Virus record (IMG/VR): IMGVR_UViG_3300045988_104973
Source of the DNA: a virus
DNA: 13,203 nucleotides
Strand: one strand, 5' to 3'
The notes below the pieces were generated by a model, which was given only the letters and a program-made list of their open reading frames with translations, was not told the DNA's origin and searched no databases. A program made the position numbers and the translations under genes. Positions 1 through 13,203 of the stretch are shown one piece after another (position 1 is the first letter of the stretch; the number at the start of each line of letters is the position of its first letter).

Positions 1-179
1 TGATAGAACTATAGCACATTAAAGTGGTAAAGCATTAACGCGTTACTGCACTAAAGTTCCCACATGCGCTTGTCTATGCACTAGAATTGTTAACAGCACA
101 AGTTTTAGTTAATATAAAATAGTAGTTGACAAATTATTAGTAAAGTGCTATAATCTTCTTAGAAACAAGATAACAGGTT
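1..179 (+). repeat. Left inverted terminal repeat (ITR), 179 bp
   Basis: Bases 1-179 are the exact reverse complement of 13025-13203, compared block by block. Identity breaks at 180/13024. This is the expected origin region for protein-primed replication. Confidence 0.95.
126..154 (+). promoter_or_regulatory. Sigma-A/sigma-70 consensus promoter inside the left ITR, firing inward
   Basis: TTGACA (126-131), a 17-nt spacer, then TATAAT (149-154), a perfect consensus. An AT-rich UP-like tract lies at 103-125. The first RBS/ATG is about 40 nt downstream. Confidence 0.8.
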
Positions 180-199
180 AATAAGAAAGGATAAATAAT

Positions 200-382
200 A
201 TGACGTTTAGAGAGCTATGTTTTAGTTGCACAAATCTTGTGAGTTGTGCGGATGTTCGCGTTTTTGATGGCGGAAAAGCTACTTGCAATGTAAAAATGCA
301 GAGTTTGGCGAGAGAGGTTGATTGGTTTACTGTCACAGGTTTGAACAGTGTTGATGTCGAGTTATATAGCGAGGATGAATAA
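200..382 (+). CDS. Small early protein (60 aa), unknown function; paralog of the right-end gene 12784-12987
   Basis: It is the first ORF downstream of the ITR promoter, with RBS AAAGGA at 186-191. The N-terminus MTFRELCFSCTNL and an internal EVDWF align with MTLRDLLLACGNL and EVDYF of the right-end protein. The C-terminus is acidic (YSEDE). Confidence 0.65.
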   Translation: MTFRELCFSCTNLVSCADVRVFDGGKATCNVKMQSLAREVDWFTVTGLNSVDVELYSEDE

Positions 383-471
383 TGAAAGAAACAATGCAGA
401 TTATATTTATATCGCTTTTGGCACTGCTATCAATTTTAGCATTTCCTACACTTTATTTATTCGGTTTTTGA
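382..471 (+). CDS. 29-aa hydrophobic micro-protein (MKETMQIIFISLLALLSILAFPTLYLFGF), putative single-pass membrane peptide
   Basis: Hand-translated; it is below the ORF-track size cutoff. Its ATG overlaps the upstream stop (TAATG at 380-384) and GAGGA lies 6 nt upstream. About 23 contiguous hydrophobic residues are present. Confidence 0.4.
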   Translation: MKETMQIIFISLLALLSILAFPTLYLFGF

Positions 472-488
472 TGTTTCACGTGAAACAT
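471..488. repeat. 18-bp perfect palindrome ATGTTTCACGTGAAACAT, copy 1, directly upstream of the RBS of the gene at 506
   Basis: The sequence is self-complementary over all 18 nt. An identical 18-mer occurs at 11122-11139 and a 16/18 variant at 13003-13020. Confidence 0.85.
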
Positions 489-505
489 AGAAAGGAGATC
501 GGACA

Positions 506-1102: not shown

Positions 1103-3136
1103 ATGATAACAGATGTATATGATTTTGACTATTCGATTTTTAAAAAAGTAGGAAATGTGAAAAGAAAAAAAGGTTCAAGAAATAAGAAAAACTATAAAAA
1201 TCTGGTTTGCGCTTTTGATATCGAGACGAGCCGTATCAAAGAAATTGAACAGTCGGTCATGTACATCTGGCAGTTTCAAGTTGACGAAAAAGTTACTGTG
1301 ATAGGGAGAACATGGAGAGAGTTTGACTACTTCATGAGAGCGATAGCAGATGATCTGGAAGACATGGATTACATCGTAGTATATGTCCATAACCTTTCCT
1401 TCGAGTTCCAGTTTCTTTCGGGAATCTATCCTTTTTCAAAGGAAGAGGTTTTTGCTTTGGACGAACGAAAAGTTTGCAAGTGTGAGATGTTTGAGCATTT
1501 TGAGTTTAGATGCTCCTATATTCAAACAAATATGTCCTTAGAAACATTTACAGATAAAATGAATGTCAAGCATAAGAAGCTTTCTGGTGACTTGGACTAT
1601 AATGTGGAGCGTTATTCATACACGCCGTTATCTGATGAAGAGTTGGCTTATTGTATTAACGATGTACAAGGTTTGGTAGAAGCGATTAAGACAGAAATGA
1701 AAAACGATGGTGACACCCTCTATACAATTCCGCTGACCTCAACCGGTTATGTTCGTCGTGATGTAAAAAGCGCACTTGAGGGCAACCGCTGGATTATGGG
1801 AATCCAGCCGGATTTCGATGTCTATCAAGTAGCAAGAGAGGCGTTCCGTGGCGGCAACACCCACGCAAATCGTTTCTATGCCGGATGGATTCTTGAGGGT
1901 GTCCATTCCGCCGACCGTTCATCAAGTTATCCGGGTGTTCAGTGCAACAGAGCTTATCCGGTCACCCGATTTCACAAGATTTCAAAACCCGTTCCCGATG
2001 CAGGTCAGATCATTGATCTAATGAAAAGAAGAGAAAAAGCAATTCTGATGCGTGTATCATTCGAGGGGGTTTACTTAAATGATTACTCATGGGGATGCCC
2101 GTATCTGGCAAAAGACAAGTGCAGAAGTGTAGTAAAAGGAGTGTATGACAACGGTAGGATATTAAGCGCAGAATATTTGGAGACATCTATCACGGATGTT
2201 GATTTAAGAATCATAGTCGAAGAGTATCACATTGATAAGATCATACCGATTGAAGTTTACACAGCTCGTTATGGAAAACTCCCTGCCGCCATGATTGAAA
2301 CCATCTGTCTCTATTACAAAAAGAAAACAGAGTTGAAGGACGTAGAAGGGCAGGAATATTTTTATATGAAAAGTAAAAATAAGCTTAACTCTATCTACGG
2401 TATGACAGCGCAAGACCCTGTCAAAGAGGCAATATTGTATAAAGATGAAAAATTTACAATTGATAGATCAAAGACGAAAAAAGAACTATTGGAAAAGTTC
2501 ATGAAAAGGGCGTTCATTCCATATACATGGGGTGTATGGTGTACCGCATGGGCACGGTATGAATTGGAACGGGGTATGCGTACGGTGACAGATCAAGGCG
2601 GTACGTTTATCTACTGTGACACCGATTCGATTAAGTACCTAGGAGATGTGGATTTTTCAGAATATAATAACGAAAAAATAAAGTTGTCGAAAGAGAACGG
2701 TGCGTGGGCTACTGACCCGCAAGGCAACAATCATTACATGGAAGTGTATGAACAGGAGAAAGACGCTGATCGTTTCATTACATGGGGAGCGAAAAAGTAC
2801 GCATACGAAGCTGACGGGAAATTAAAGATCACGATTGCAGGAGTACCGAAAAAAGCTGGTGCAGAAGAGTTAAAGAAGAAAGGCGGCCTGGTTGCATTAA
2901 AGCCCGGGTTTGTATTCAGCGATTGCGGAAAACTGGAAACGGTTTACAATGACAAGCCGGAGATAACAAAATATAAAAACAAAGACGGAAAAATAATTGA
3001 AATAACTAAAAACGTGGTGTTGCGTCCTACCACTTATGCAGTGGGCATTACAAAAGAATATGATGAAATTTTACTAGACGCTTTGCTGTACAATATATTA
3101 ATCAATATTTTAAAAGGAACAAAATTATTAGGTTGA
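1103..3136 (+). CDS. Family-B protein-primed DNA polymerase (phi29-type), 677 aa
   Basis: Exo I is FDIETS, Exo II is HNLSFEF and Exo III is YCINDVQG. Motif A is DRSSSYPG (DxxSxYP) and motif B is KNKLNSIYG (Kx3NSxYG). CTAWARY matches phi29 ITAWARY. Motif C is IYCDTDSI and KxY is KKY. Confidence 0.95.
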   Translation: MITDVYDFDYSIFKKVGNVKRKKGSRNKKNYKNLVCAFDIETSRIKEIEQSVMYIWQFQVDEKVTVIGRTWREFDYFMRAIADDLEDMDYIVVYVHNLSFEFQFLSGIYPFSKEEVFALDERKVCKCEMFEHFEFRCSYIQTNMSLETFTDKMNVKHKKLSGDLDYNVERYSYTPLSDEELAYCINDVQGLVEAIKTEMKNDGDTLYTIPLTSTGYVRRDVKSALEGNRWIMGIQPDFDVYQVAREAFRGGNTHANRFYAGWILEGVHSADRSSSYPGVQCNRAYPVTRFHKISKPVPDAGQIIDLMKRREKAILMRVSFEGVYLNDYSWGCPYLAKDKCRSVVKGVYDNGRILSAEYLETSITDVDLRIIVEEYHIDKIIPIEVYTARYGKLPAAMIETICLYYKKKTELKDVEGQEYFYMKSKNKLNSIYGMTAQDPVKEAILYKDEKFTIDRSKTKKELLEKFMKRAFIPYTWGVWCTAWARYELERGMRTVTDQGGTFIYCDTDSIKYLGDVDFSEYNNEKIKLSKENGAWATDPQGNNHYMEVYEQEKDADRFITWGAKKYAYEADGKLKITIAGVPKKAGAEELKKKGGLVALKPGFVFSDCGKLETVYNDKPEITKYKNKDGKIIEITKNVVLRPTTYAVGITKEYDEILLDALLYNILINILKGTKLLG

Positions 3137-3161
3137 CAAAAATAATAAAAAGGTTTATAAT
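3133..3161 (+). promoter_or_regulatory. Perfect consensus sigma-A promoter overlapping the polymerase stop codon
   Basis: TTGACA (3133-3138), a 17-nt spacer, then TATAAT (3156-3161), with AT-rich sequence upstream. It precedes the strong RBS of the gene at 3212. Confidence 0.75.
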
Positions 3162-3211
3162 GTATTATGTAATACAGATAAAGATAAAGATGAAAAGAAA
3201 GGAGTAGGAAA

Positions 3212-3466
3212 ATGAAAGGAAACATTTCTAAAAGCGTTGTAACAACAACCATTCGTGTTTGTCGTTATAACGAAGAAACGAAAACAGAAGAGATTGTAAT
3301 TAGAAAAATGAAGTCTCTGAGAACGCCGTCCAGTGAGCGAATTGAAAACTGGATTATGGAAGAAGACAGGGGATATTTGAGCTTCGAGGTTCTCAACACT
3401 ACATCTGAGGTCTATACAATGACCGCTGATGATTTTATCAACTACGCAACCAGAAGGGAGAAATAA
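3212..3466 (+). CDS. Hypothetical small protein, 84 aa
   Basis: RBS AAAGGAG lies 8 nt upstream of the ATG. It is the first gene of a two-gene cassette bounded by promoter 3133-3161 and terminator 3868-3897. No motif was recognised. Confidence 0.7.
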   Translation: MKGNISKSVVTTTIRVCRYNEETKTEEIVIRKMKSLRTPSSERIENWIMEEDRGYLSFEVLNTTSEVYTMTADDFINYATRREK

Positions 3467-3468
3467 CA

Positions 3469-3816
3469 ATGAAAATTATCAGAAGTAAAAATGAAAAGAT
3501 TACCGTAAAAGAGAAATATCTTATGTCAATGAATCCCGAGATTCGTAGAATGAGAGATGCCGAGGGGATGAATGTTCCGGTGATTAACTGGATGCTTTAT
3601 TCCGACACAGACAAAGATGGAAATGAACAGACCCTTCTTTCTATCCTGTCTGAGGAGAATGTTGCATACGCAACAAACAGCCGGACTTTCATCGAAGCAT
3701 TTTCCGTACTCTGTGACATGTTCGCAGACAGCGGGGAAGAGATTACCGCCATTAAGGTAATCAGTGGACAGTCAAAAGCAGGACGGCACTTTATCACTTG
3801 CGCCTATGCTGAGTAA
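3469..3816 (+). CDS. Hypothetical protein, 115 aa; candidate abundant replication accessory (SSB/DBP-like) protein by position only
   Basis: RBS GGGAG is present and the start lies 2 nt after the upstream stop. It sits in the replication module and is followed by an intrinsic terminator. The functional guess is positional inference from phi29 p5/p6, not sequence homology. Confidence 0.7.
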   Translation: MKIIRSKNEKITVKEKYLMSMNPEIRRMRDAEGMNVPVINWMLYSDTDKDGNEQTLLSILSEENVAYATNSRTFIEAFSVLCDMFADSGEEITAIKVISGQSKAGRHFITCAYAE

Positions 3817-3912: not shown

Positions 3913-4953
3913 ATGAAGGAAAAGAACATTTATGACCGTAATGGCTTTATCAATATACCGGCTATTTACAACATACAAGTACCGTTCATTTTTATTGTAG
4001 GTGGTCGAGGAACTGGAAAAACGTATGGAGTGTGTAAATTTGCGATTGAGAAAAAGATCAAGTTCGCTCTGATGAGACGAACACAAACACAAGCTGATCT
4101 GATTTCCAAACCGGAATTTTCACCGCTCAAACCTGTGCTTGGAGATATGAACCGGATGTTTAAGGCGGTTTCTTTGACAAAACAGAACAGTGCTTTTTAT
4201 GAAACAGACATGGAAGGAACGATTATTTCACCCGAACCGTTCTGTTATTCACTCGCACTGTCAACCATTTCAAACATGCGTGGTTTTGATGCTAGTGATA
4301 TCTCCCTCATCTTCTATGATGAGTTTATCGCAGAAGCGCACGAACGACCACTGAAAAATGAAGCAGAAGCTTTCTTTAACTGTTATGAAACAATTAACCG
4401 TAACCGTGAATTGAAAGGGATTCCACCTGTCAAAGTGATCTGTGCCGCTAATAGCAATAATATGGCGAATGAGTTGTTCATATCACTGGGACTGGTGCTG
4501 AGAGCGGAAAAAATGTATCAGAACGGTTCATCTATCTGGATTGACAAAGAAAGGGGTCTGGCACTAATCATCTGTCAAGACAGTCCTGTTTCCGAAGCAA
4601 AGGAAAAAACAGCACTTTACAATCTGGTGCCAAGGGATTCTGACTTTTATCAGATGTCATTAAAGAACGTATTCACGAAAGACAGAGCGGATAACATCGG
4701 TGCCAGAAACATCAAGGAATTCAAGCCGTTAGTCCATGCCGGCGAAATGTATATCTATCGGCATAAATCACGTCAGGAGTACTATGCGACCCCCTTCAAG
4801 TCAGGCGTATTTAAAGATAACTATACGATGAGCGAAAATGATAAAGTACGCTTTCGCTTAAAATATCGCTATCTATGGATCGCATTTCTATCACGTTCGC
4901 TATTTTTTGAAAATTATATCATACAGGTTCTTTTTACAAAATGTTTTACTTAA
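3913..4953 (+). CDS. DNA encapsidation (packaging) ATPase, phi29 gp16-like, 346 aa
   Basis: Walker A is GGRGTGKTYG and Walker B-like is LIFYDEF. The size matches gp16-type packaging ATPases. The start is moved to ATG 3913 (RBS AGAGGTGA, 3901-3908) because the ORF-track start at 3856 would run through the terminator hairpin. Confidence 0.88.
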   Translation: MKEKNIYDRNGFINIPAIYNIQVPFIFIVGGRGTGKTYGVCKFAIEKKIKFALMRRTQTQADLISKPEFSPLKPVLGDMNRMFKAVSLTKQNSAFYETDMEGTIISPEPFCYSLALSTISNMRGFDASDISLIFYDEFIAEAHERPLKNEAEAFFNCYETINRNRELKGIPPVKVICAANSNNMANELFISLGLVLRAEKMYQNGSSIWIDKERGLALIICQDSPVSEAKEKTALYNLVPRDSDFYQMSLKNVFTKDRADNIGARNIKEFKPLVHAGEMYIYRHKSRQEYYATPFKSGVFKDNYTMSENDKVRFRLKYRYLWIAFLSRSLFFENYIIQVLFTKCFT

Positions 4954-4956
4954 CTA

Positions 4957-4985
4957 TTGTCTAAAAACGGGATGTGTGTTATAAT
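4957..4985 (+). promoter_or_regulatory. Strong sigma-A promoter with extended -10, directly after the ATPase stop
   Basis: TTGTCT (4957-4962), a 17-nt spacer, then TATAAT (4980-4985), with TG at 4977-4978 giving TGnTATAAT. Confidence 0.75.
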
Positions 4986-4991
4986 CAGAAG

Positions 4992-5095
4992 TGAAAAGGA
5001 TGCGTAGAAACCAATCCCGGAAGGATGCGCACGTTCTAGGTTTCAGGACGGGAATCCTTTTTCAACAGGCGGTATATACAACCGCCTGTTTTATT
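4992..5095 (+). ncRNA. Candidate ~100-nt structured non-coding RNA or late-operon leader
   Basis: It is bounded by promoter 4957-4985 and a terminator hairpin at 5064-5095, and no ORF with a usable RBS is present. Complementary segments visible by eye are 4993-5001 with 5054-5063, 5007-5012 with 5039-5044, and 5015-5019 with 5049-5053. A 9-nt direct repeat AAGGATGCG occurs at 4996 and 5021. Confidence 0.45.
5064..5095 (+). terminator. Rho-independent terminator between the late promoter and the late genes
   Basis: AACAGGCGG (5064-5072), an 8-9-nt loop, then CCGCCTGTT (5082-5090), running into TTTTATT (5089-5095). Confidence 0.75.
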
Positions 5096-5123
5096 AAACA
5101 AACCGGGAAAGAAAGAGGTGGCT

Positions 5124-5321
5124 ATGGACGCAAACGCAATCATGACTATGGTGCAGACGTTAGGATTTCCAATCGTTTGCTGTGGGGCACTCTTTTGGAG
5201 AATGATGAAAGAGTCCGACAATCACAAAGTGGAAATGGAAAAAGTCACGGATGCGCTGAACAACAACACACAGGCACTCATCCGATTGGAAGAATCATTG
5301 AAAGGAGAAAAAGAAAAATGA
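5124..5321 (+). CDS. Small membrane protein, YvrJ-like (65 aa); possible holin-type or lysis-timing protein
   Basis: RBS AAGAGG is at 5113-5118. There is one hydrophobic segment (TLGFPIVCCGALFW) followed by a charged helical tail. The GFPI motif and overall layout recall the YvrJ family. Its stop overlaps the next start (ATGA at 5318-5321). Confidence 0.7.
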   Translation: MDANAIMTMVQTLGFPIVCCGALFWRMMKESDNHKVEMEKVTDALNNNTQALIRLEESLKGEKEK

Positions 5322-5698
5322 AACAGGAAGACATTGTAGCATTAGCAAGAGCCGGATTCACAAGGGAGCAGATTGTTGCGCTTGCAGGTTTACAGCAGAC
5401 AGCACCGATTCAGCAGAGCGTTCCGGTTCAGCAGACACCGCCGGTTCAGCAGACCGTTCCGGTTCAGCAGACCGCCCAGGGTCAGCAGACAGCACCGGTT
5501 CAGCAGACAGCACCGGTTCAGCAGACCGTTCCGGTTCAGCAGAGCGAATCATCCGGTGATCCGGTTCTGGATGCCCTTCTGGGACTGCGAGATGACATGA
5601 AAAAACAGGCGTTGCTGTTTTCCTCACAGCCTGCAAACCAGACAGAAACCACGAATGACATTTTAGCATCCATTATCAACCCGAAAGGAGAAAAATAA
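5318..5698 (+). CDS. Putative scaffolding protein with QQTxPV hexapeptide repeats, 126 aa
   Basis: It is translationally coupled on both sides (ATGA upstream, TAATG downstream) and lies immediately upstream of the capsid gene. It is small and acidic/Gln-rich with a helical N-terminus (DIVALARAGFTREQIVAL). The ORF-track version starting at 4991 is rejected. Confidence 0.55.
   Translation: MKQEDIVALARAGFTREQIVALAGLQQTAPIQQSVPVQQTPPVQQTVPVQQTAQGQQTAPVQQTAPVQQTVPVQQSESSGDPVLDALLGLRDDMKKQALLFSSQPANQTETTNDILASIINPKGEK
5393..5536 (+). repeat. In-frame tandem repeat, 8 x 18 bp plus a partial ninth unit
   Basis: Units begin every 18 nt from 5393 (CAGCAGACAGCACCGGTT-like) and encode QQT(A/V/P)P(V/I). 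Units 6 and 7 are identical, as are units 4 and 8. Confidence 0.95.
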
Positions 5699-6903: not shown

Positions 6904-6936
6904 TGTTCCGCATGGACATAACAGAAAGGAGTGAAC

Positions 6937-9591: not shown

Positions 9592-10498
9592 TGGCATACC
9601 CTTTTCAGCGGACTACATCAACGCGGCAAACTCGGTGATTTCACCGAGTACCGTGCATTGCCGGAATACCAGCTTATCTCTTTATTTTCAGCGGTATCTC
9701 TTACAGAAAGCGATGAGCGTATTCAAATGGGAGATGCCGCCGGAATGGTCGAAGAACTACACCCTTTATACGCTGTATTGTTGGGGCTTTTTCGCTGTAG
9801 TCAACACAGACAGGTACGGAGTGATCCCACAGGCCTGCGGACTGCGCGGATATGATGTATTCTATCAGCCAACTAACGCAATCATCACGAACCCACTCCT
9901 ATCCGGGACACTGGAACCAAGAATTGGTTTGCAGTGCGAACTGGTTCGGTTACAGCCGGATTACGGCGGCATCATGGATATTGTTACCTATTATGCGGAT
10001 ATGCTGGCTCTCTGCGCTGAATCCGTAGGAATGAATCTGGTCAACAGTAAACTTGCTTATGTCTTTGCCGCCGAGAACAAAGCTATGGCGGAAACATTCA
10101 AAAAGCTGTATGATCAGATTGCGGCGGGAAATGCAGCTGCTATCATTGACAAACAGTTATTCCGGGAAGACGGAAAGGCGAGCTGGCAGATGTTCAACCA
10201 GAACGTTGGTCAGAACTACATTGCAGATCAAGTGCTTTCGGATATGCGGAAAATCGAAGCTATGTTCTGCACGGATGTGGGCATCCCGAACGCCAACACG
10301 GACAAAAAGGAACGGTTAATCACAGATGAGGTGAACGCTAATAAGGTGGAGACACGTTCAAAGTGTGACCTCTGGTTGGAAGAATTAAAAGAATCCTGCA
10401 AGAAAGTGCGAGAGATGTTCGACATCAAACTGGATGTGGACTGGCGTTACAAAGGAGGTGTAGAAGATGGCAACGTTGAGCCTGTTAGGACTGTATAA
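9584..10498 (+). CDS. Portal / upper collar connector (phi29 gp10-like), 304 aa
   Basis: FKWEMPPEW, GIPNANTDKKERLITDEVNAN and the C-terminal DVDWRY align with the phi29 connector segments FEWENLPP, GIKNANLEKKERMVTDEV and VKFRY. The start is taken as ATG 9584 (RBS GGAGGGA, 9570-9576). Confidence 0.9.
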   Translation: MYNGIPFSADYINAANSVISPSTVHCRNTSLSLYFQRYLLQKAMSVFKWEMPPEWSKNYTLYTLYCWGFFAVVNTDRYGVIPQACGLRGYDVFYQPTNAIITNPLLSGTLEPRIGLQCELVRLQPDYGGIMDIVTYYADMLALCAESVGMNLVNSKLAYVFAAENKAMAETFKKLYDQIAAGNAAAIIDKQLFREDGKASWQMFNQNVGQNYIADQVLSDMRKIEAMFCTDVGIPNANTDKKERLITDEVNANKVETRSKCDLWLEELKESCKKVREMFDIKLDVDWRYKGGVEDGNVEPVRTV

Positions 10499-11306
10499 TT
10501 ATGATGAATCCCTTTTGGATGGACTGATCGAAAGTTTACCAAACAGATATGGGATCCCATCTGGCTATGCAGATTCCTACTACACGGATGTTATCATTGA
10601 TCCTCAGACCGTAGTGGAAAATCTGTTGGTGGAATGCGCCGAGTTTGAAATCTTGTATTCAGACTTTAACGCATTAAAGCGCATCATCAAAATTTGGTCT
10701 GCAAAAGAGAAACTGATGTGGCAGAAAATGTATAACACCATCTGCTATAAATACAACCCCATTTGGAACAAAGACGGAAAATCTGTCTGGACGGAACGGC
10801 AGAGCGCAACCGGAAAGAAGACAGAAACGGAAAAAGGATCAAAAACCACCAACGCCAATGGAACAACCAATGATGAATATACATCAACTAGCAACACAAC
10901 AAATAAAACAACCGGAACGGGTACAAATACCCGTACAGGAAGTGATGAGACAACCGGAAAAGTCAGTGCCTATGACAGCACAGATTTTCAGAACCGGGAG
11001 AAAACAAACAGCACAGCAAGCGAAAACAACAGCACCGAAAGCACAGAAGATTTCACTGGCAACGGAAAAGTAACAAATTCCGGAACGAAAACGATTGTGA
11101 ATACAGGTGATGAAACGAATAATGTTTCACGTGAAACATCTGACAACAACACGGGTGAAACAACGCATGAACAGACAGAAACCGGAAACATCGGAATCAC
11201 GTTAACTCAGAATATGATTACTGCGGAACGTGAAATCGCCATGTTCAATATCATTGATTTTATTATCAATGATTTCAAAGAACGTTTCTGTTTACTGATT
11301 TATTGA
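10467..11306 (+). CDS. Putative lower collar protein (gp11 position), 279 aa, with a Thr/Asn/Gly/Glu-rich central region
   Basis: It lies immediately after the portal as in phi29, with RBS AAAGGAGG at 10451-10458 and a 32-nt overlap with the portal gene. The N- and C-terminal regions are ordered-looking and flank a low-complexity core (aa 111-240). The call rests on synteny. Confidence 0.5.
   Translation: MATLSLLGLYNYDESLLDGLIESLPNRYGIPSGYADSYYTDVIIDPQTVVENLLVECAEFEILYSDFNALKRIIKIWSAKEKLMWQKMYNTICYKYNPIWNKDGKSVWTERQSATGKKTETEKGSKTTNANGTTNDEYTSTSNTTNKTTGTGTNTRTGSDETTGKVSAYDSTDFQNREKTNSTASENNSTESTEDFTGNGKVTNSGTKTIVNTGDETNNVSRETSDNNTGETTHEQTETGNIGITLTQNMITAEREIAMFNIIDFIINDFKERFCLLIY
11122..11139. 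repeat. 18-bp perfect palindrome ATGTTTCACGTGAAACAT, copy 2, inside the lower collar gene
   Basis: It is identical to 471-488 and lies within codons for NVSRETS. Confidence 0.85.
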
Positions 11307-11320
11307 AAGGAGAATGTGAA

Positions 11321-12760
11321 ATGGGATTATTTGATCAGTTTCCGTATACTAATTTTCACGAATTAAACCTTGACTGGCTTATTGAACGTATGAAACACTG
11401 TCTGTCTGTAGTCGATGGTGTCAATGCAAACATTGATGCCACTGTTGAACGCGAAATTGAAAAACTGGTAGAAACTGGTGAATTTGATCAGTTTCTGTAT
11501 AACATGTTCAAAGAACACACGGATAACGCAGTGTTATGGGGCGCAGACCCCACTGGAGTTGACGATTCTTCTGTAGTCATCAATAAAATGTTAAGCACCA
11601 TAGGTAGTTGCTATCTGCCGAATGGTATTTATCGCATTGACGAATCAATCGTTATTCCATCAGATGCTCGGCTGTATGGACAGAGTACGGACGGCGTGAT
11701 CTTAAAAGCATATCGAAATGGGCCCGTGGCTGTTATTAAGTCCGCAACTTATGACTTGTATCACAACACTGACACGATCAACGGCGACACCTCTTTTGAA
11801 ATTAAGGACTTGACCGTTGACGGAAACGGCCGTGGTATGATCGGTATCGCGCTTTACGGATATAAATATCACATTGCAAATGTTGACATTCGCAAATGTA
11901 CCGACGGGTTCTACAGCGAATGGGGTAGTTCGAACGGGTTCGCGGAGAACGGTAATGTTATGCACTCAGTAATCGAAAATGTAACGATCGGGAACTGTAC
12001 GTCACATGTTGCACAGTTTTTTGGACCCCATGACAGCTATATTGACAAACTAGTCGGGCATAACTGTGACTCAGGTCTGTACATTGTAAAAAAAGCAAGT
12101 AACGCGAACAGAGCGAACGGAACGGTTCTTTCCAACAGTCATATTTTCTCCATTCAGAAAACGGGAATTTATATCACAGATTACTGCTATTTAGATAATG
12201 TTGTGTCTGAATCCAACGGCGGTGACGGAATCTATGCGGAGTCTGAGTGTAAAATGTATAATTGCACGATATTTAACAACGGCGGAAACGGTCTGACTAT
12301 TGCCGCCAACATATCACAGGCGATTGTTGAAAACGCTTCTTGTTATCAGAACAAGGGAAAAGATATTGTTATCGGAGCGAATGTGAAAAACAGTATCATC
12401 AACGCTCAGACATTCAGCGCGGATTCTGGAAAAATTGCTGTGAATAGCGGTTTGCTCACAAAAGAAGCTAACAGTTATAACAATCACATCCACATCGTTA
12501 GTGCCAGTCCGTTTCATGGAATTGATTATGCACCGATGACACTTAGTACGGTGGAAATACCGGAAACTAGTCCTTATGTGAACACCACGGGGCGGTCTGC
12601 AAATGTAATTGTATACGGTTCGAATGACTGTAAACTTTTGTTTACTGGCTCGACTGTTAACATGAAAGCGGAGCAGTGTTATCCATTACCATGCGGGGCA
12701 TCAATTACGTGGACTACTAAACCTTCTAGCATATTATTGATGTATAATCCTATTAACTAG
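11321..12760 (+). CDS. Tail spike / pre-neck appendage-like receptor-binding protein with right-handed beta-helix (pectate-lyase-like) domain, 479 aa
   Basis: The N-terminal FPYTNFHELNLDWLI motif is common to Firmicute phage appendage/fiber N-termini. WGADPTGVDDSSVVINKML is the typical start of a Pectate_lyase_3-type beta-helix. Repetitive (N/D)G..I.. turns follow. The start is taken as ATG 11321 (RBS AAAGGAGA). Confidence 0.75.
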   Translation: MGLFDQFPYTNFHELNLDWLIERMKHCLSVVDGVNANIDATVEREIEKLVETGEFDQFLYNMFKEHTDNAVLWGADPTGVDDSSVVINKMLSTIGSCYLPNGIYRIDESIVIPSDARLYGQSTDGVILKAYRNGPVAVIKSATYDLYHNTDTINGDTSFEIKDLTVDGNGRGMIGIALYGYKYHIANVDIRKCTDGFYSEWGSSNGFAENGNVMHSVIENVTIGNCTSHVAQFFGPHDSYIDKLVGHNCDSGLYIVKKASNANRANGTVLSNSHIFSIQKTGIYITDYCYLDNVVSESNGGDGIYAESECKMYNCTIFNNGGNGLTIAANISQAIVENASCYQNKGKDIVIGANVKNSIINAQTFSADSGKIAVNSGLLTKEANSYNNHIHIVSASPFHGIDYAPMTLSTVEIPETSPYVNTTGRSANVIVYGSNDCKLLFTGSTVNMKAEQCYPLPCGASITWTTKPSSILLMYNPIN

Positions 12761-12761
12761 T

Positions 12762-12785
12762 AAGAGGGGCATAAGCCCCTCTTTT
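12762..12785. terminator. Bidirectional intrinsic terminator between the convergent late operon and the right-end gene
   Basis: AAGAGGGGC (12762-12770), loop ATAA, then GCCCCTCTT (12775-12783), a 9-bp stem. T residues follow on the + strand and the A-rich 5' flank supplies Us for the - strand transcript. Confidence 0.75.
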
Positions 12786-12987
12786 AAATTAAGCAGATGA
12801 TTTTATCGCTGTTTTTGTGGAAGAAGATTTTGAAATAATCTACTTCCATTTTCATATATGCGGGATTTTTTTCAAAACACCCACTCACTGTATCTTGATA
12901 GATACTCTTATTATTCATGTCTGTTATTACAACTAGCGAACCGTTTTTCAGATTGCCACATGCTAATAATAAGTCCCGTAATGTCAT
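12784..12987 (-). CDS. Small right-end early protein (67 aa), paralog of 200-382
   Basis: The start is taken at MTLRDLL (ATG 12987-12985), with RBS AAAGGAGA 5 nt upstream. It is the only leftward gene and is driven by the right ITR promoter. It shares the N-terminal and EVD(W/Y)F blocks with the left-end protein. Confidence 0.7.
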   Translation of the reverse strand: MTLRDLLLACGNLKNGSLVVITDMNNKSIYQDTVSGCFEKNPAYMKMEVDYFKIFFHKNSDKIICLI

Positions 12988-13002
12988 AATATTCTCCTTT
13001 CT

Positions 13003-13020
13003 GTGTTTCATGTGAAACAT
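13003..13020. repeat. Variant copy (16/18) of the 18-bp palindrome, between the right ITR promoter and the RBS of the right-end gene
   Basis: Read on the - strand it is ATGTTTCACATGAAACAC followed by AGAAAGGAGA. The 28-nt module 12993-13020 matches 471-498 at 26/28 positions in inverted orientation. Confidence 0.8.
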
Positions 13021-13024
13021 TTAA

Positions 13025-13203
13025 AACCTGTTATCTTGTTTCTAAGAAGATTATAGCACTTTACTAATAATTTGTCAACTACTATTTTATATTAACTAAA
13101 ACTTGTGCTGTTAACAATTCTAGTGCATAGACAAGCGCATGTGGGAACTTTAGTGCAGTAACGCGTTAATGCTTTACCACTTTAATGTGCTATAGTTCTA
13201 TCA
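13025..13203 (-). repeat. Right inverted terminal repeat (ITR), 179 bp
   Basis: It is the exact reverse complement of 1-179. Confidence 0.95.
13050..13078 (-). promoter_or_regulatory. Sigma-A consensus promoter inside the right ITR, firing inward (leftward)
   Basis: It is the mirror image of 126-154. On the - strand, TTGACA is at 13078-13073 and TATAAT at 13055-13050. Confidence 0.8.

Follow-up and report, generated by a model that had tools for sequence, protein, structure and literature searches.

Chromosomal-Type parS Sites in an Uncultivated phi29-Like Podophage and Their Predicted Recognition by Host ParB

Introduction

Why would a small phage genome carry nearly the same 18-nt palindrome beside the ribosome-binding sites (RBS) of genes at both of its ends, and which protein could be expected to read it? 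The question is raised by the IMG/VR virus record IMGVR_UViG_3300045988_104973, a stretch of 13,203 bp that is referred to below, at its full length, as the window. An earlier note on this DNA described a 28-nt module, palindrome plus RBS, which is duplicated in inverted orientation near the genome ends, and proposed that it works as a binding site of a dimeric protein or as an RNA element. The analysis reported here leads to a more specific answer: the 16-bp core of the palindrome, TGTTTCACGTGAAACA, is canonical chromosomal-type parS, the ParB/Spo0J site, and on the strength of its sequence it is predicted to bind ParB in this genome as well.

The window is a complete linear genome, the ends of which are perfect inverted terminal repeats (ITRs) of 179 bp. 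Pfam matches among its proteins comprise Phi29_Phage_SSB, DNA_pol_B_2, Podovirus_Gp16, Phi29_MCP, and Phage_connector (GP10 connector). The DNA polymerase is a family-B, protein-primed enzyme (PolB), and Gp16 is the packaging ATPase. Since a phi29-type single-stranded DNA-binding protein (SSB), PolB, the Gp16 ATPase, the capsid protein, and the connector are all present, the window can be assigned to a phi29-like podophage.

The Palindrome and Its Identity as parS

Both copies of the module are present as the earlier note had them. The left one, ATGTTTCACGTGAAACAT-AGAAAGGAGA, lies at 471-498; the right one, ATGTTTCACATGAAACAC-AGAAAGGAGA, lies on the minus strand at 13020-12993 and matches the left one at 26 of 28 positions. 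The 18-mer ATGTTTCACGTGAAACAT itself fills 471-488, and its minus-strand counterpart at 13020-13003 carries two changes. The ATG codons at 506 and 12987 follow the module by 7 and 5 nt, respectively, and the right copy begins 4 nt inside the ITR boundary and occupies roughly +24 to +41 relative to the ITR promoter.

Two elements of that description have to be amended. The inverted pair is real, but a third exact copy of the palindrome (11122-11139) had been overlooked, so the arrangement is not simply a terminal pair. Likewise, the palindrome is non-random, but the RBS half of the supposed module is the ordinary Shine-Dalgarno (SD) sequence of the genome and not specific to it. The standard SD of the genome, AGAAAGGAG, also occurs at 3196, 6923, and 13002 (minus strand), each time ahead of a start codon, and the genes at 3212 and 6937 are among those that it precedes. 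The palindrome adjoins AGAAAGGAGA because the genome is compact, with intergenic spacers of only about 35 nt. When up to three mismatches are allowed, the 18-mer finds 3 matches in the window against 0.03 expected, and none of 200 shuffles reaches three.

The identity of the sequence is clear from the literature. Among the matches listed by a full-text search with TTTCACGTGAAA, most concern ParB-parS or the ParB paralogue Noc. According to PMC7022226, chromosomal parS follows the consensus TGTTNCACGTGAAACA in bacteria such as B. subtilis and Corynebacterium, and Hyphomonas has TGTTTCACGTGAAACA. The latter form also served as the parS consensus for twelve mouse-gut bacteria, including Clostridia, in which 1-10 sites each were counted (PMC10197239). 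In comparison with TGTTNCACGTGAAACA, the cores at 472-487 and 11123-11138 show no mismatches and the core at 13004-13019 shows one, a change of the central C to T. The DNA in the ParB co-crystal is GATGTTTCACGTGAAACATC (bioRxiv 10.1101/724823), and the window positions 470-488 and 11122-11140 each agree with it at 19 of 20 bases. The coordinates of the sites, of their probable remnants, and of the adjoining features are collected in Table 1.

Table 1. Positions of the parS sites, their relics, and associated features in the window (a dot means that no strand is assigned).
Feature	Position	Strand	Remarks
parS site 1	471..488 (core 472-487, TGTTTCACGTGAAACA)	.	Exact match to the parS consensus
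parS site 2	11122..11139 (core 11123-11138)	.	Exact copy within the open reading frame (ORF) 10467-11306; reads N-V-S-R-E-T
parS site 3	13003..13020 (core 13004-13019, TGTTTCATGTGAAACA, central TG)	.	In the leader of a 67-aa minus-strand gene
SD of the gene at 506	489..498	+	AGAAAGGAGA; generic SD outside the protein-binding site
SD of the 67-aa right-end gene (ATG 12987)	12993..13002	-	
Decayed parS relic	4942..4957	.	TGTTTTACTTAACTAT, 9/16 matches; beside a 3-nt deletion; positional homology in alignment
Probable decayed parS relic	6904..6919	.	TGTTCCGCATGGACAT, 9/16 matches; between the capsid-gene stop and the SD of gene 6937
Left ITR	1-179	+	100% identical to the right ITR; holds promoter TTGACA-17-TATAAT at 126-154
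Right ITR	13025-13203	-	Same promoter at 13078-13050

Conservation and Turnover of the Sites

The relatives considered are 62 IMG/VR contigs obtained by a polymerase-based scan, with PolB identities of 38-96% (designated by L numbers where they need to be told apart). They were scored for the core TGTTTCA-NN-TGAAACA at no more than one mismatch. At this threshold 31 of the 62 carry 2-5 sites each and the remaining 31 carry none, while simple arithmetic with equal base frequencies gives a chance expectation of about 0.002 sites per 13-kb genome. The site-bearing relatives fall into three clades, with PolB identities of at least 87%, about 53%, and 45%.

Positions 2-7 and 10-15 show at least 95% invariance over 115 site contexts, and the variation that does occur is limited to the two outermost positions and to the central CG, with TG or CA frequently in place of the latter. 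The Noc site NBS, TATTTCCCGGGAAATA, has two differences per half-site from parS (bioRxiv 10.1101/724823), and at the discriminating positions the bases found across the relatives are of the parS type (G2 in 110 and A7 in 109 of the 115 contexts). The 30 core variants include 28 pair-breaking and 14 wobble one-sided changes, and compensatory double changes number zero. It is thus the sequence that is kept rather than the pairing, which argues for a double-stranded DNA site read by a protein and against an RNA stem. An alignment of 17 sequences shows the intragenic 16-mer to be nearly invariant while the flanking codons vary. This pattern supports the earlier idea of a dimeric DNA-binding-protein site in its general form, and conservation of the palindrome independently of the RBS, a check suggested along with that idea, is indeed seen in the relatives.

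Individual sites differ in how well they are kept. Among the relatives of at least 87% identity, all those whose left end is covered have a recognisable site (0-3 mismatches) ahead of the terminal-protein gene, and the intragenic copy has 0-2 mismatches wherever its region is covered. The copies that vary within this clade are the ITR-adjacent one and those upstream of genes 4991 and 6937. L005 and L019 share the ITR-adjacent site at their right end, and L012, L013, L016, and L223-L227 have it at the left end. At the position corresponding to 6904-6919 of the window the relatives have from none to three intact tandem parS copies. The promoter upstream of gene 4991 (4957-4985, TTGTCT-17-TATAAT with an extended TG) is conserved throughout the clade of at least 87% identity, and in most relatives an intact parS ends 2 nt ahead of its -35 box; the subclade of the window has lost this parS through a 3-nt deletion plus substitutions.

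As to placement, parS site 1 lies between the TGA stop (469-471) of a 29-aa gene and the SD of the candidate terminal-protein gene, and the commonest context in general is a stop codon followed by the palindrome, 1-5 nt, an SD, and an ATG. Intragenic copies are located in a tail-region gene in the whole clade of at least 87% identity, and L045 and the 53% clade have them at differing codons of the polymerase gene. In L019, L031, and L014, 2-3 copies follow one another in tandem with a period of 26-27 nt. The copy number stays at 2-5 though individual sites are gained and lost; five sites are present in a common lineage whose capsid protein is represented in 53 indexed blocks of the assembly collection.

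Several observations on single sites may be added. The surroundings of the intragenic parS of the window (11095-11170) are a low-complexity stretch rich in E-T codons, and extra conserved GTGAAACA half-sites are located about 24 nt downstream (GGTGAAACAAC) and upstream (GATGAAAC) of it; GGTGAAAC likewise lies 3' of parS at phi29 10445 and Nf 10042. A single AGTTTCACGTGAAACA or AATTTCACGTGAAACA is present in the polymerase gene of L066 (2298), L067 (2676), L054-L056, L068, and L198 (AD70P2, 8620), at non-homologous codons and in clades otherwise without parS. In L021 of the 53% clade (4257-4304), the SSB gene is followed by parS, an SD-like GGAAAGGAGG, and a hairpin that resembles a terminator (GGGGAGC-ATTTA-GCTCCCC), beyond which lies a promoter-like site, so the SD-like sequences beside parS need not all be ribosome-binding sites.

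Two further palindromes of the window deserve mention. A candidate fourth copy, TGTATTAtgTAATACA at 3161-3176, was rejected, since 4 of its 14 half-site positions are mismatched (6 of 18 when the whole 18-mer is compared) and since, unlike the adjoining promoter, it is not retained beyond the closest subclade. The first base of this 7-2-7 palindrome is also the last one of the -10 box in the promoter at 3133-3161; the palindrome could be a local operator. The palindrome TGTTGCATACGCAACA at 3660-3675, inside the SSB gene, resembles parS with 3-4 mismatches; it is kept in part of the clade and is perfect in L007 (TGTTGCATATGCAACA).

Host ParB as the Candidate Binding Protein

Searches of the window proteins against Pfam, PHROGs, and NCBIfam reveal no member of a ParB, helix-turn-helix (HTH), or ribbon-helix-helix (RHH) family, and a Pfam search of eight ORFs from a member of the 53% clade reveals no ParB or DNA-binding fold. 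Nor does any protein of the window track the site in a co-occurrence analysis across the 62 relatives. The 16-mer is also found in other phages, namely phi29, Nf, Clostridium phage HM2, and Amedibacillus phage AD70P2, and in unrelated viral contigs. By direct scan, phi29 has four exact TGTTTCACGTGGAACA sites (at 10445, 15903, 17243, and 18760), Nf has two exact sites in its first 18 kb, HM2 has one exact site plus one with one mismatch, and AD70P2 has one site with one mismatch; a scan of GA-1 finds no parS site. Taken together, the lack of a phage ParB, the identity of the site with host parS, and its presence in other phages make the host's ParB the simplest candidate for the binding protein.

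The sites are not confined to the group defined by the polymerase scan. The exact parS 16-mer occurs on at least 120 IMG/VR stretches, many of them with several copies, while a composition-matched control palindrome occurs on 22 stretches, always as a single copy. Small PolB-type phages make up about one quarter of the 120 matches listed for exact parS. Also among the matches listed, several PolB-type phages with polymerases 23-37% identical to that of the window carry 3-6 sites, often SD-adjacent, in tandem pairs, or within both ITRs (L177), and the remaining multi-copy contigs look like clustered arrays. In L177, a distant PolB phage (33% identity), there is an exact parS in each ITR, at 132-147 and 11579-11594; its presence at both ends follows from the construction of the repeat.

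Proposed Role in Genome Segregation

What might the phage gain from such sites? Host ParB probably loads on them and thereby couples the non-integrating linear genome to host chromosome segregation. ParB/Spo0J dimers would nucleate on the three parS sites (472-487, 11123-11138, and 13004-13019) and, as CTP-dependent clamps, would spread over the 13-kb linear genome capped by terminal protein. The resulting partition complex could couple the non-integrating phage DNA to the origin-segregation machinery of the host (ParA/Soj, SMC). With lytic growth delayed, the phage DNA would be inherited by daughter cells, or by forespores if the host sporulates.

The mechanism is drawn by analogy with a published proposal for the parS sites of phi29. 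With reference to Meijer et al. 2005, PMC2731898 gives phi29 five parS sites and reports evidence for an involvement of Spo0J in segregating the phi29 genome into the prespore; in this account the sites are bound by host Spo0J/ParB and serve to entrap the phage genome in spores. The five sites counted there compare with four exact TGTTTCACGTGGAACA found by scan. Three features of the phage fit a segregation role: the genome has never been seen integrated, the copy number of the sites is held despite their turnover, and the tandem arrays are centromere-like. The first of these follows from the capsid homologues, which are found in metagenome assemblies only, and there only on contigs of up to 20 kb; an exact-protein look-up of the capsid protein matched no record.

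Both phi29 and the phage described here are small protein-primed podophages with a phi29-type SSB, PolB, Gp16, capsid protein, and connector, and both have non-integrating linear genomes with several host-type parS copies and no phage ParB. They differ in that the PolB of the present phage is only distantly related to that of phi29, its genome of 13.2 kb has promoter-bearing ITRs of 179 bp and mostly one-directional genes, and its sites are fully symmetric (TGTTTCACGTGAAACA), unlike TGTTTCACGTGGAACA of phi29. Chromosomal ParABS systems, with parS near oriC in Firmicutes and most other bacteria, use the identical 16-bp sequence and also provide several ParB nucleation points per replicon; the phage genome, in contrast, is without parA and parB and has about one site per 3-4 kb, as compared with a handful per megabase-scale chromosome. 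Extrachromosomal mobile DNA is likewise stabilised via parS-ParB in P1, N15, and some actinophages. However, P1 and N15 have their own ParAB and a private parS, whereas here the host chromosome consensus is carried by a phi29-type phage normally deemed virulent. SGI1, which hijacks the ParAB of its helper IncC plasmids, resembles the phage in having sites for a ParB encoded elsewhere (PMC10954446).

Some findings weigh against this proposal. In the phi29 strategy, Spo0A boxes at early and late promoters suppress the lytic cycle. Here they are neither enriched nor located at promoters: there are 2 TGTCGAA in the window (2685 and 10418) against 2.5 expected, neither near a promoter. Most sites of the clade have stereotyped places, either in a spacer from stop codon to SD or beside an ITR or a promoter, whereas three of the four exact sites of phi29 are intragenic; such placement makes an added or different role in gene expression possible. 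On the other hand, an intergenic bias can follow from the coding constraint on a fixed 16-mer. Because GA-1 and half of the relatives have no sites, the function must be dispensable. The only hints of the host are metagenome-assembled genome (MAG) bins, and binning is unreliable. A PolB scan of GTDB genomes finds only distant relatives (45-50% PolB identity), all in MAG bins, which are mostly of Clostridia (among them Butyricicoccus, Oscillospiraceae, and Scatosoma), with two implausible bins in addition.

Other Explanations

The placement of the sites can also be read as the signature of ParB-dependent silencing or roadblocking, in which the sites do bind host ParB and the selected role is to repress or time phage transcription. 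The clamps would load downstream of the ITR promoter, beside the -35 box of the promoter at 4957 (in the relatives), and between cistrons, and the genome would be kept quiescent. This explanation appears unlikely as the main one, although silencing could coexist with the segregation role. It agrees with the ITR-adjacent site being located just downstream of a perfect promoter, with the site that, in most relatives, ends 2 nt short of a conserved promoter's -35 box, and with the strong bias to spacers between stop codon and SD. On plasmids, members of the ParB family (KorB, P1 ParB, and SopB, for example) are able to silence flanking genes. Yet the spreading of chromosomal Spo0J is not known to affect expression much in B. 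subtilis. Moreover, the two most widely kept sites of the clade of at least 87% identity (the one upstream of the terminal-protein gene and the intragenic one at 11123) are not at promoters, the promoter-adjacent sites are those lost most often, and the coding constraint alone may explain the intergenic bias.

It is quite unlikely that the sites are selected as a ParB sponge. In that case hundreds of replicating genomes with 3-5 parS each would titrate host ParB from the origin region, and the resulting disturbance of host chromosome segregation, SMC loading, or sporulation checkpoints would benefit the phage. The sponge idea draws on the presence of several consensus-strength sites per genome, on the low number of sites in host chromosomes (1-10; PMC10197239), and on the tandem amplification in some genomes. 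However, the phi29 precedent indicates segregation of the phage genome, and titration is a side effect of any parS carriage for which selection need not be invoked.

Could the palindrome be instead an operator for a small phage-encoded dimeric regulator, for instance one of the early proteins of 60, 67, or 84 aa, acting on the early promoters? Its pyrimidine-purine (YR) centre, the copy just downstream of the ITR promoter, and the fact that the small early proteins carry no functional assignment speak for such a regulator. The probability of this is nevertheless very low. The same 16-mer occurs in the clades of 45-53% PolB identity, where tblastn finds no homologue of the small proteins, and also in phi29, Nf, HM2, and AD70P2; no phage protein searched has an HTH or RHH match. 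The phage-specific operator of the earlier note therefore has to give way to the universal host parS, with which the sequence is identical and with which no phage DNA-binding protein co-occurs.

An RNA hairpin next to the SD is likewise very improbable, whether it is taken for a 5' stabiliser, a translational operator, or a processing site of the RNase III type. In most cases the palindrome does precede an SD by 1-5 nt and lies on the coding strand of a polycistronic unit, and the isolated 18-mer folds better than its shuffled versions (z = -3.3). In context, however, the z-scores are only -0.5 to -1.7, and the stem has 6-7 bp (-4.5 to -5.7 kcal/mol), which is too short for RNase III. The one-sided, never compensatory changes in the core variants are as unfavourable to a processing site as to any other structural RNA. 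A translational operator is hard to reconcile with copies that lie inside genes or in tandem arrays distant from an SD, where only the last copy adjoins one. The hairpin is not an intrinsic terminator either: a terminator scan was negative, and the palindrome is followed by AGAAAGG or TCTGAC and not by a U-tract. As a minor alternative, so weak a hairpin may have a secondary effect on the neighbouring SD.

Promoter readings were rejected: a -10-like hexamer is often present whose final T is also the first T of the site, but this overlap is explained by the upstream TAA/TGA stop and an A/T flank, and there is no consistent -35 box, while TGAAAC as the -35 box of an extracytoplasmic function (ECF) sigma factor fails, by eye, for want of a conserved -10 box after it.

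Other Features of the Genome

Nearly all genes of the window share one direction. In addition to the proteins named above, it encodes a lysozyme/amidase, a CW_7 protein, and a pectate-lyase-like tail protein. The ITR promoters (126-154 and 13078-13050) match the sigma-70 consensus at 12 of 12 positions, and a third perfect promoter is internal (3133-3161). In GenBank phage records the sole close match is a 4.6-kb human-faecal fragment. Among cultured phages, the nearest by polymerase have about 35% identity, namely Amedibacillus phage AD70P2, a member of Guelinviridae, and Clostridium phage HM2; the PolB proteins of Bacillus phage records are less than 60% identical to that of the window.

The small ITR-adjacent genes at 200-382 (+) and 12784-12987 (-) are paralogous cassettes (MTFRELCFSC... 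and MTLRDLLLAC...). Among the relatives such end cassettes swap between the genome ends (L072-L077), and some ends carry 2-3 of these genes; the right end of L073, for instance, carries the left-end gene of the window plus its parS-less leader. The suggestion that the left-end genes had been inserted between an ancestral ITR and the palindrome finds little in its favour, as the site upstream of the terminal-protein gene follows the conserved 29-aa gene in most relatives whose left end is covered, and it is further weakened by the shuffling of the end cassettes between both ends, with or without an ITR-adjacent parS.

Gene 4991-5698, which possibly encodes a scaffold or head-decoration protein, contains about 10 tandem 18-nt repeats (CAGCAGACNGYNCCGGTT; window 5375-5572) that encode a QQT.PV-like repeat. 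Between the convergent genes ending at 12760 (+) and 12784 (-) there is a G+C-rich hairpin, AGAGGGGC-TTAT-GCCCCTCT (12763-12782), which is likely a bidirectional terminator (cf. TD1 of phi29).

Significance for phi29-Like Phages

The carriage of parS by a phage is in itself already known from phi29. What appears to be unreported is the spread of such sites among uncultivated protein-primed podophages of the gut: within their limited scope, literature searches found no description of parS in gut phi29-like phages, and the word parS is absent from a 2024 review on phi29-like phages. Since the sites extend down to 45% PolB identity and occur in other small PolB phages from metagenomes and in cultured phages of Clostridium and Amedibacillus, the strategy of phi29 may be widespread rather than specific to Bacillus.

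A bolder proposal, put forward tentatively and with a rather low probability, is that many 'virulent' gut protein-primed podophages use host ParB for both dormancy and inheritance, the ParB-CTP clamps loading at parS just behind promoters and between cistrons of the linear, terminal-protein-capped genome, silencing it, and tethering it to the host origin region. If this were true, the phage would persist as a segregating episome, or in the spores of gut Clostridia, without lysogeny genes, and parS carriage would represent a general and previously unrecognised route of long-term persistence and transmission of gut phages.

The presence of at least two consensus parS sites together with the absence of parB offers a sequence marker for phages of this kind. 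Because the site is that of a named host factor, the claim is testable: a gut phage with neither integrase nor repressor may be inherited via the centromere machinery of its host. This bears on the stable persistence of apparently lytic phages in the gut, which may possibly travel with spores.

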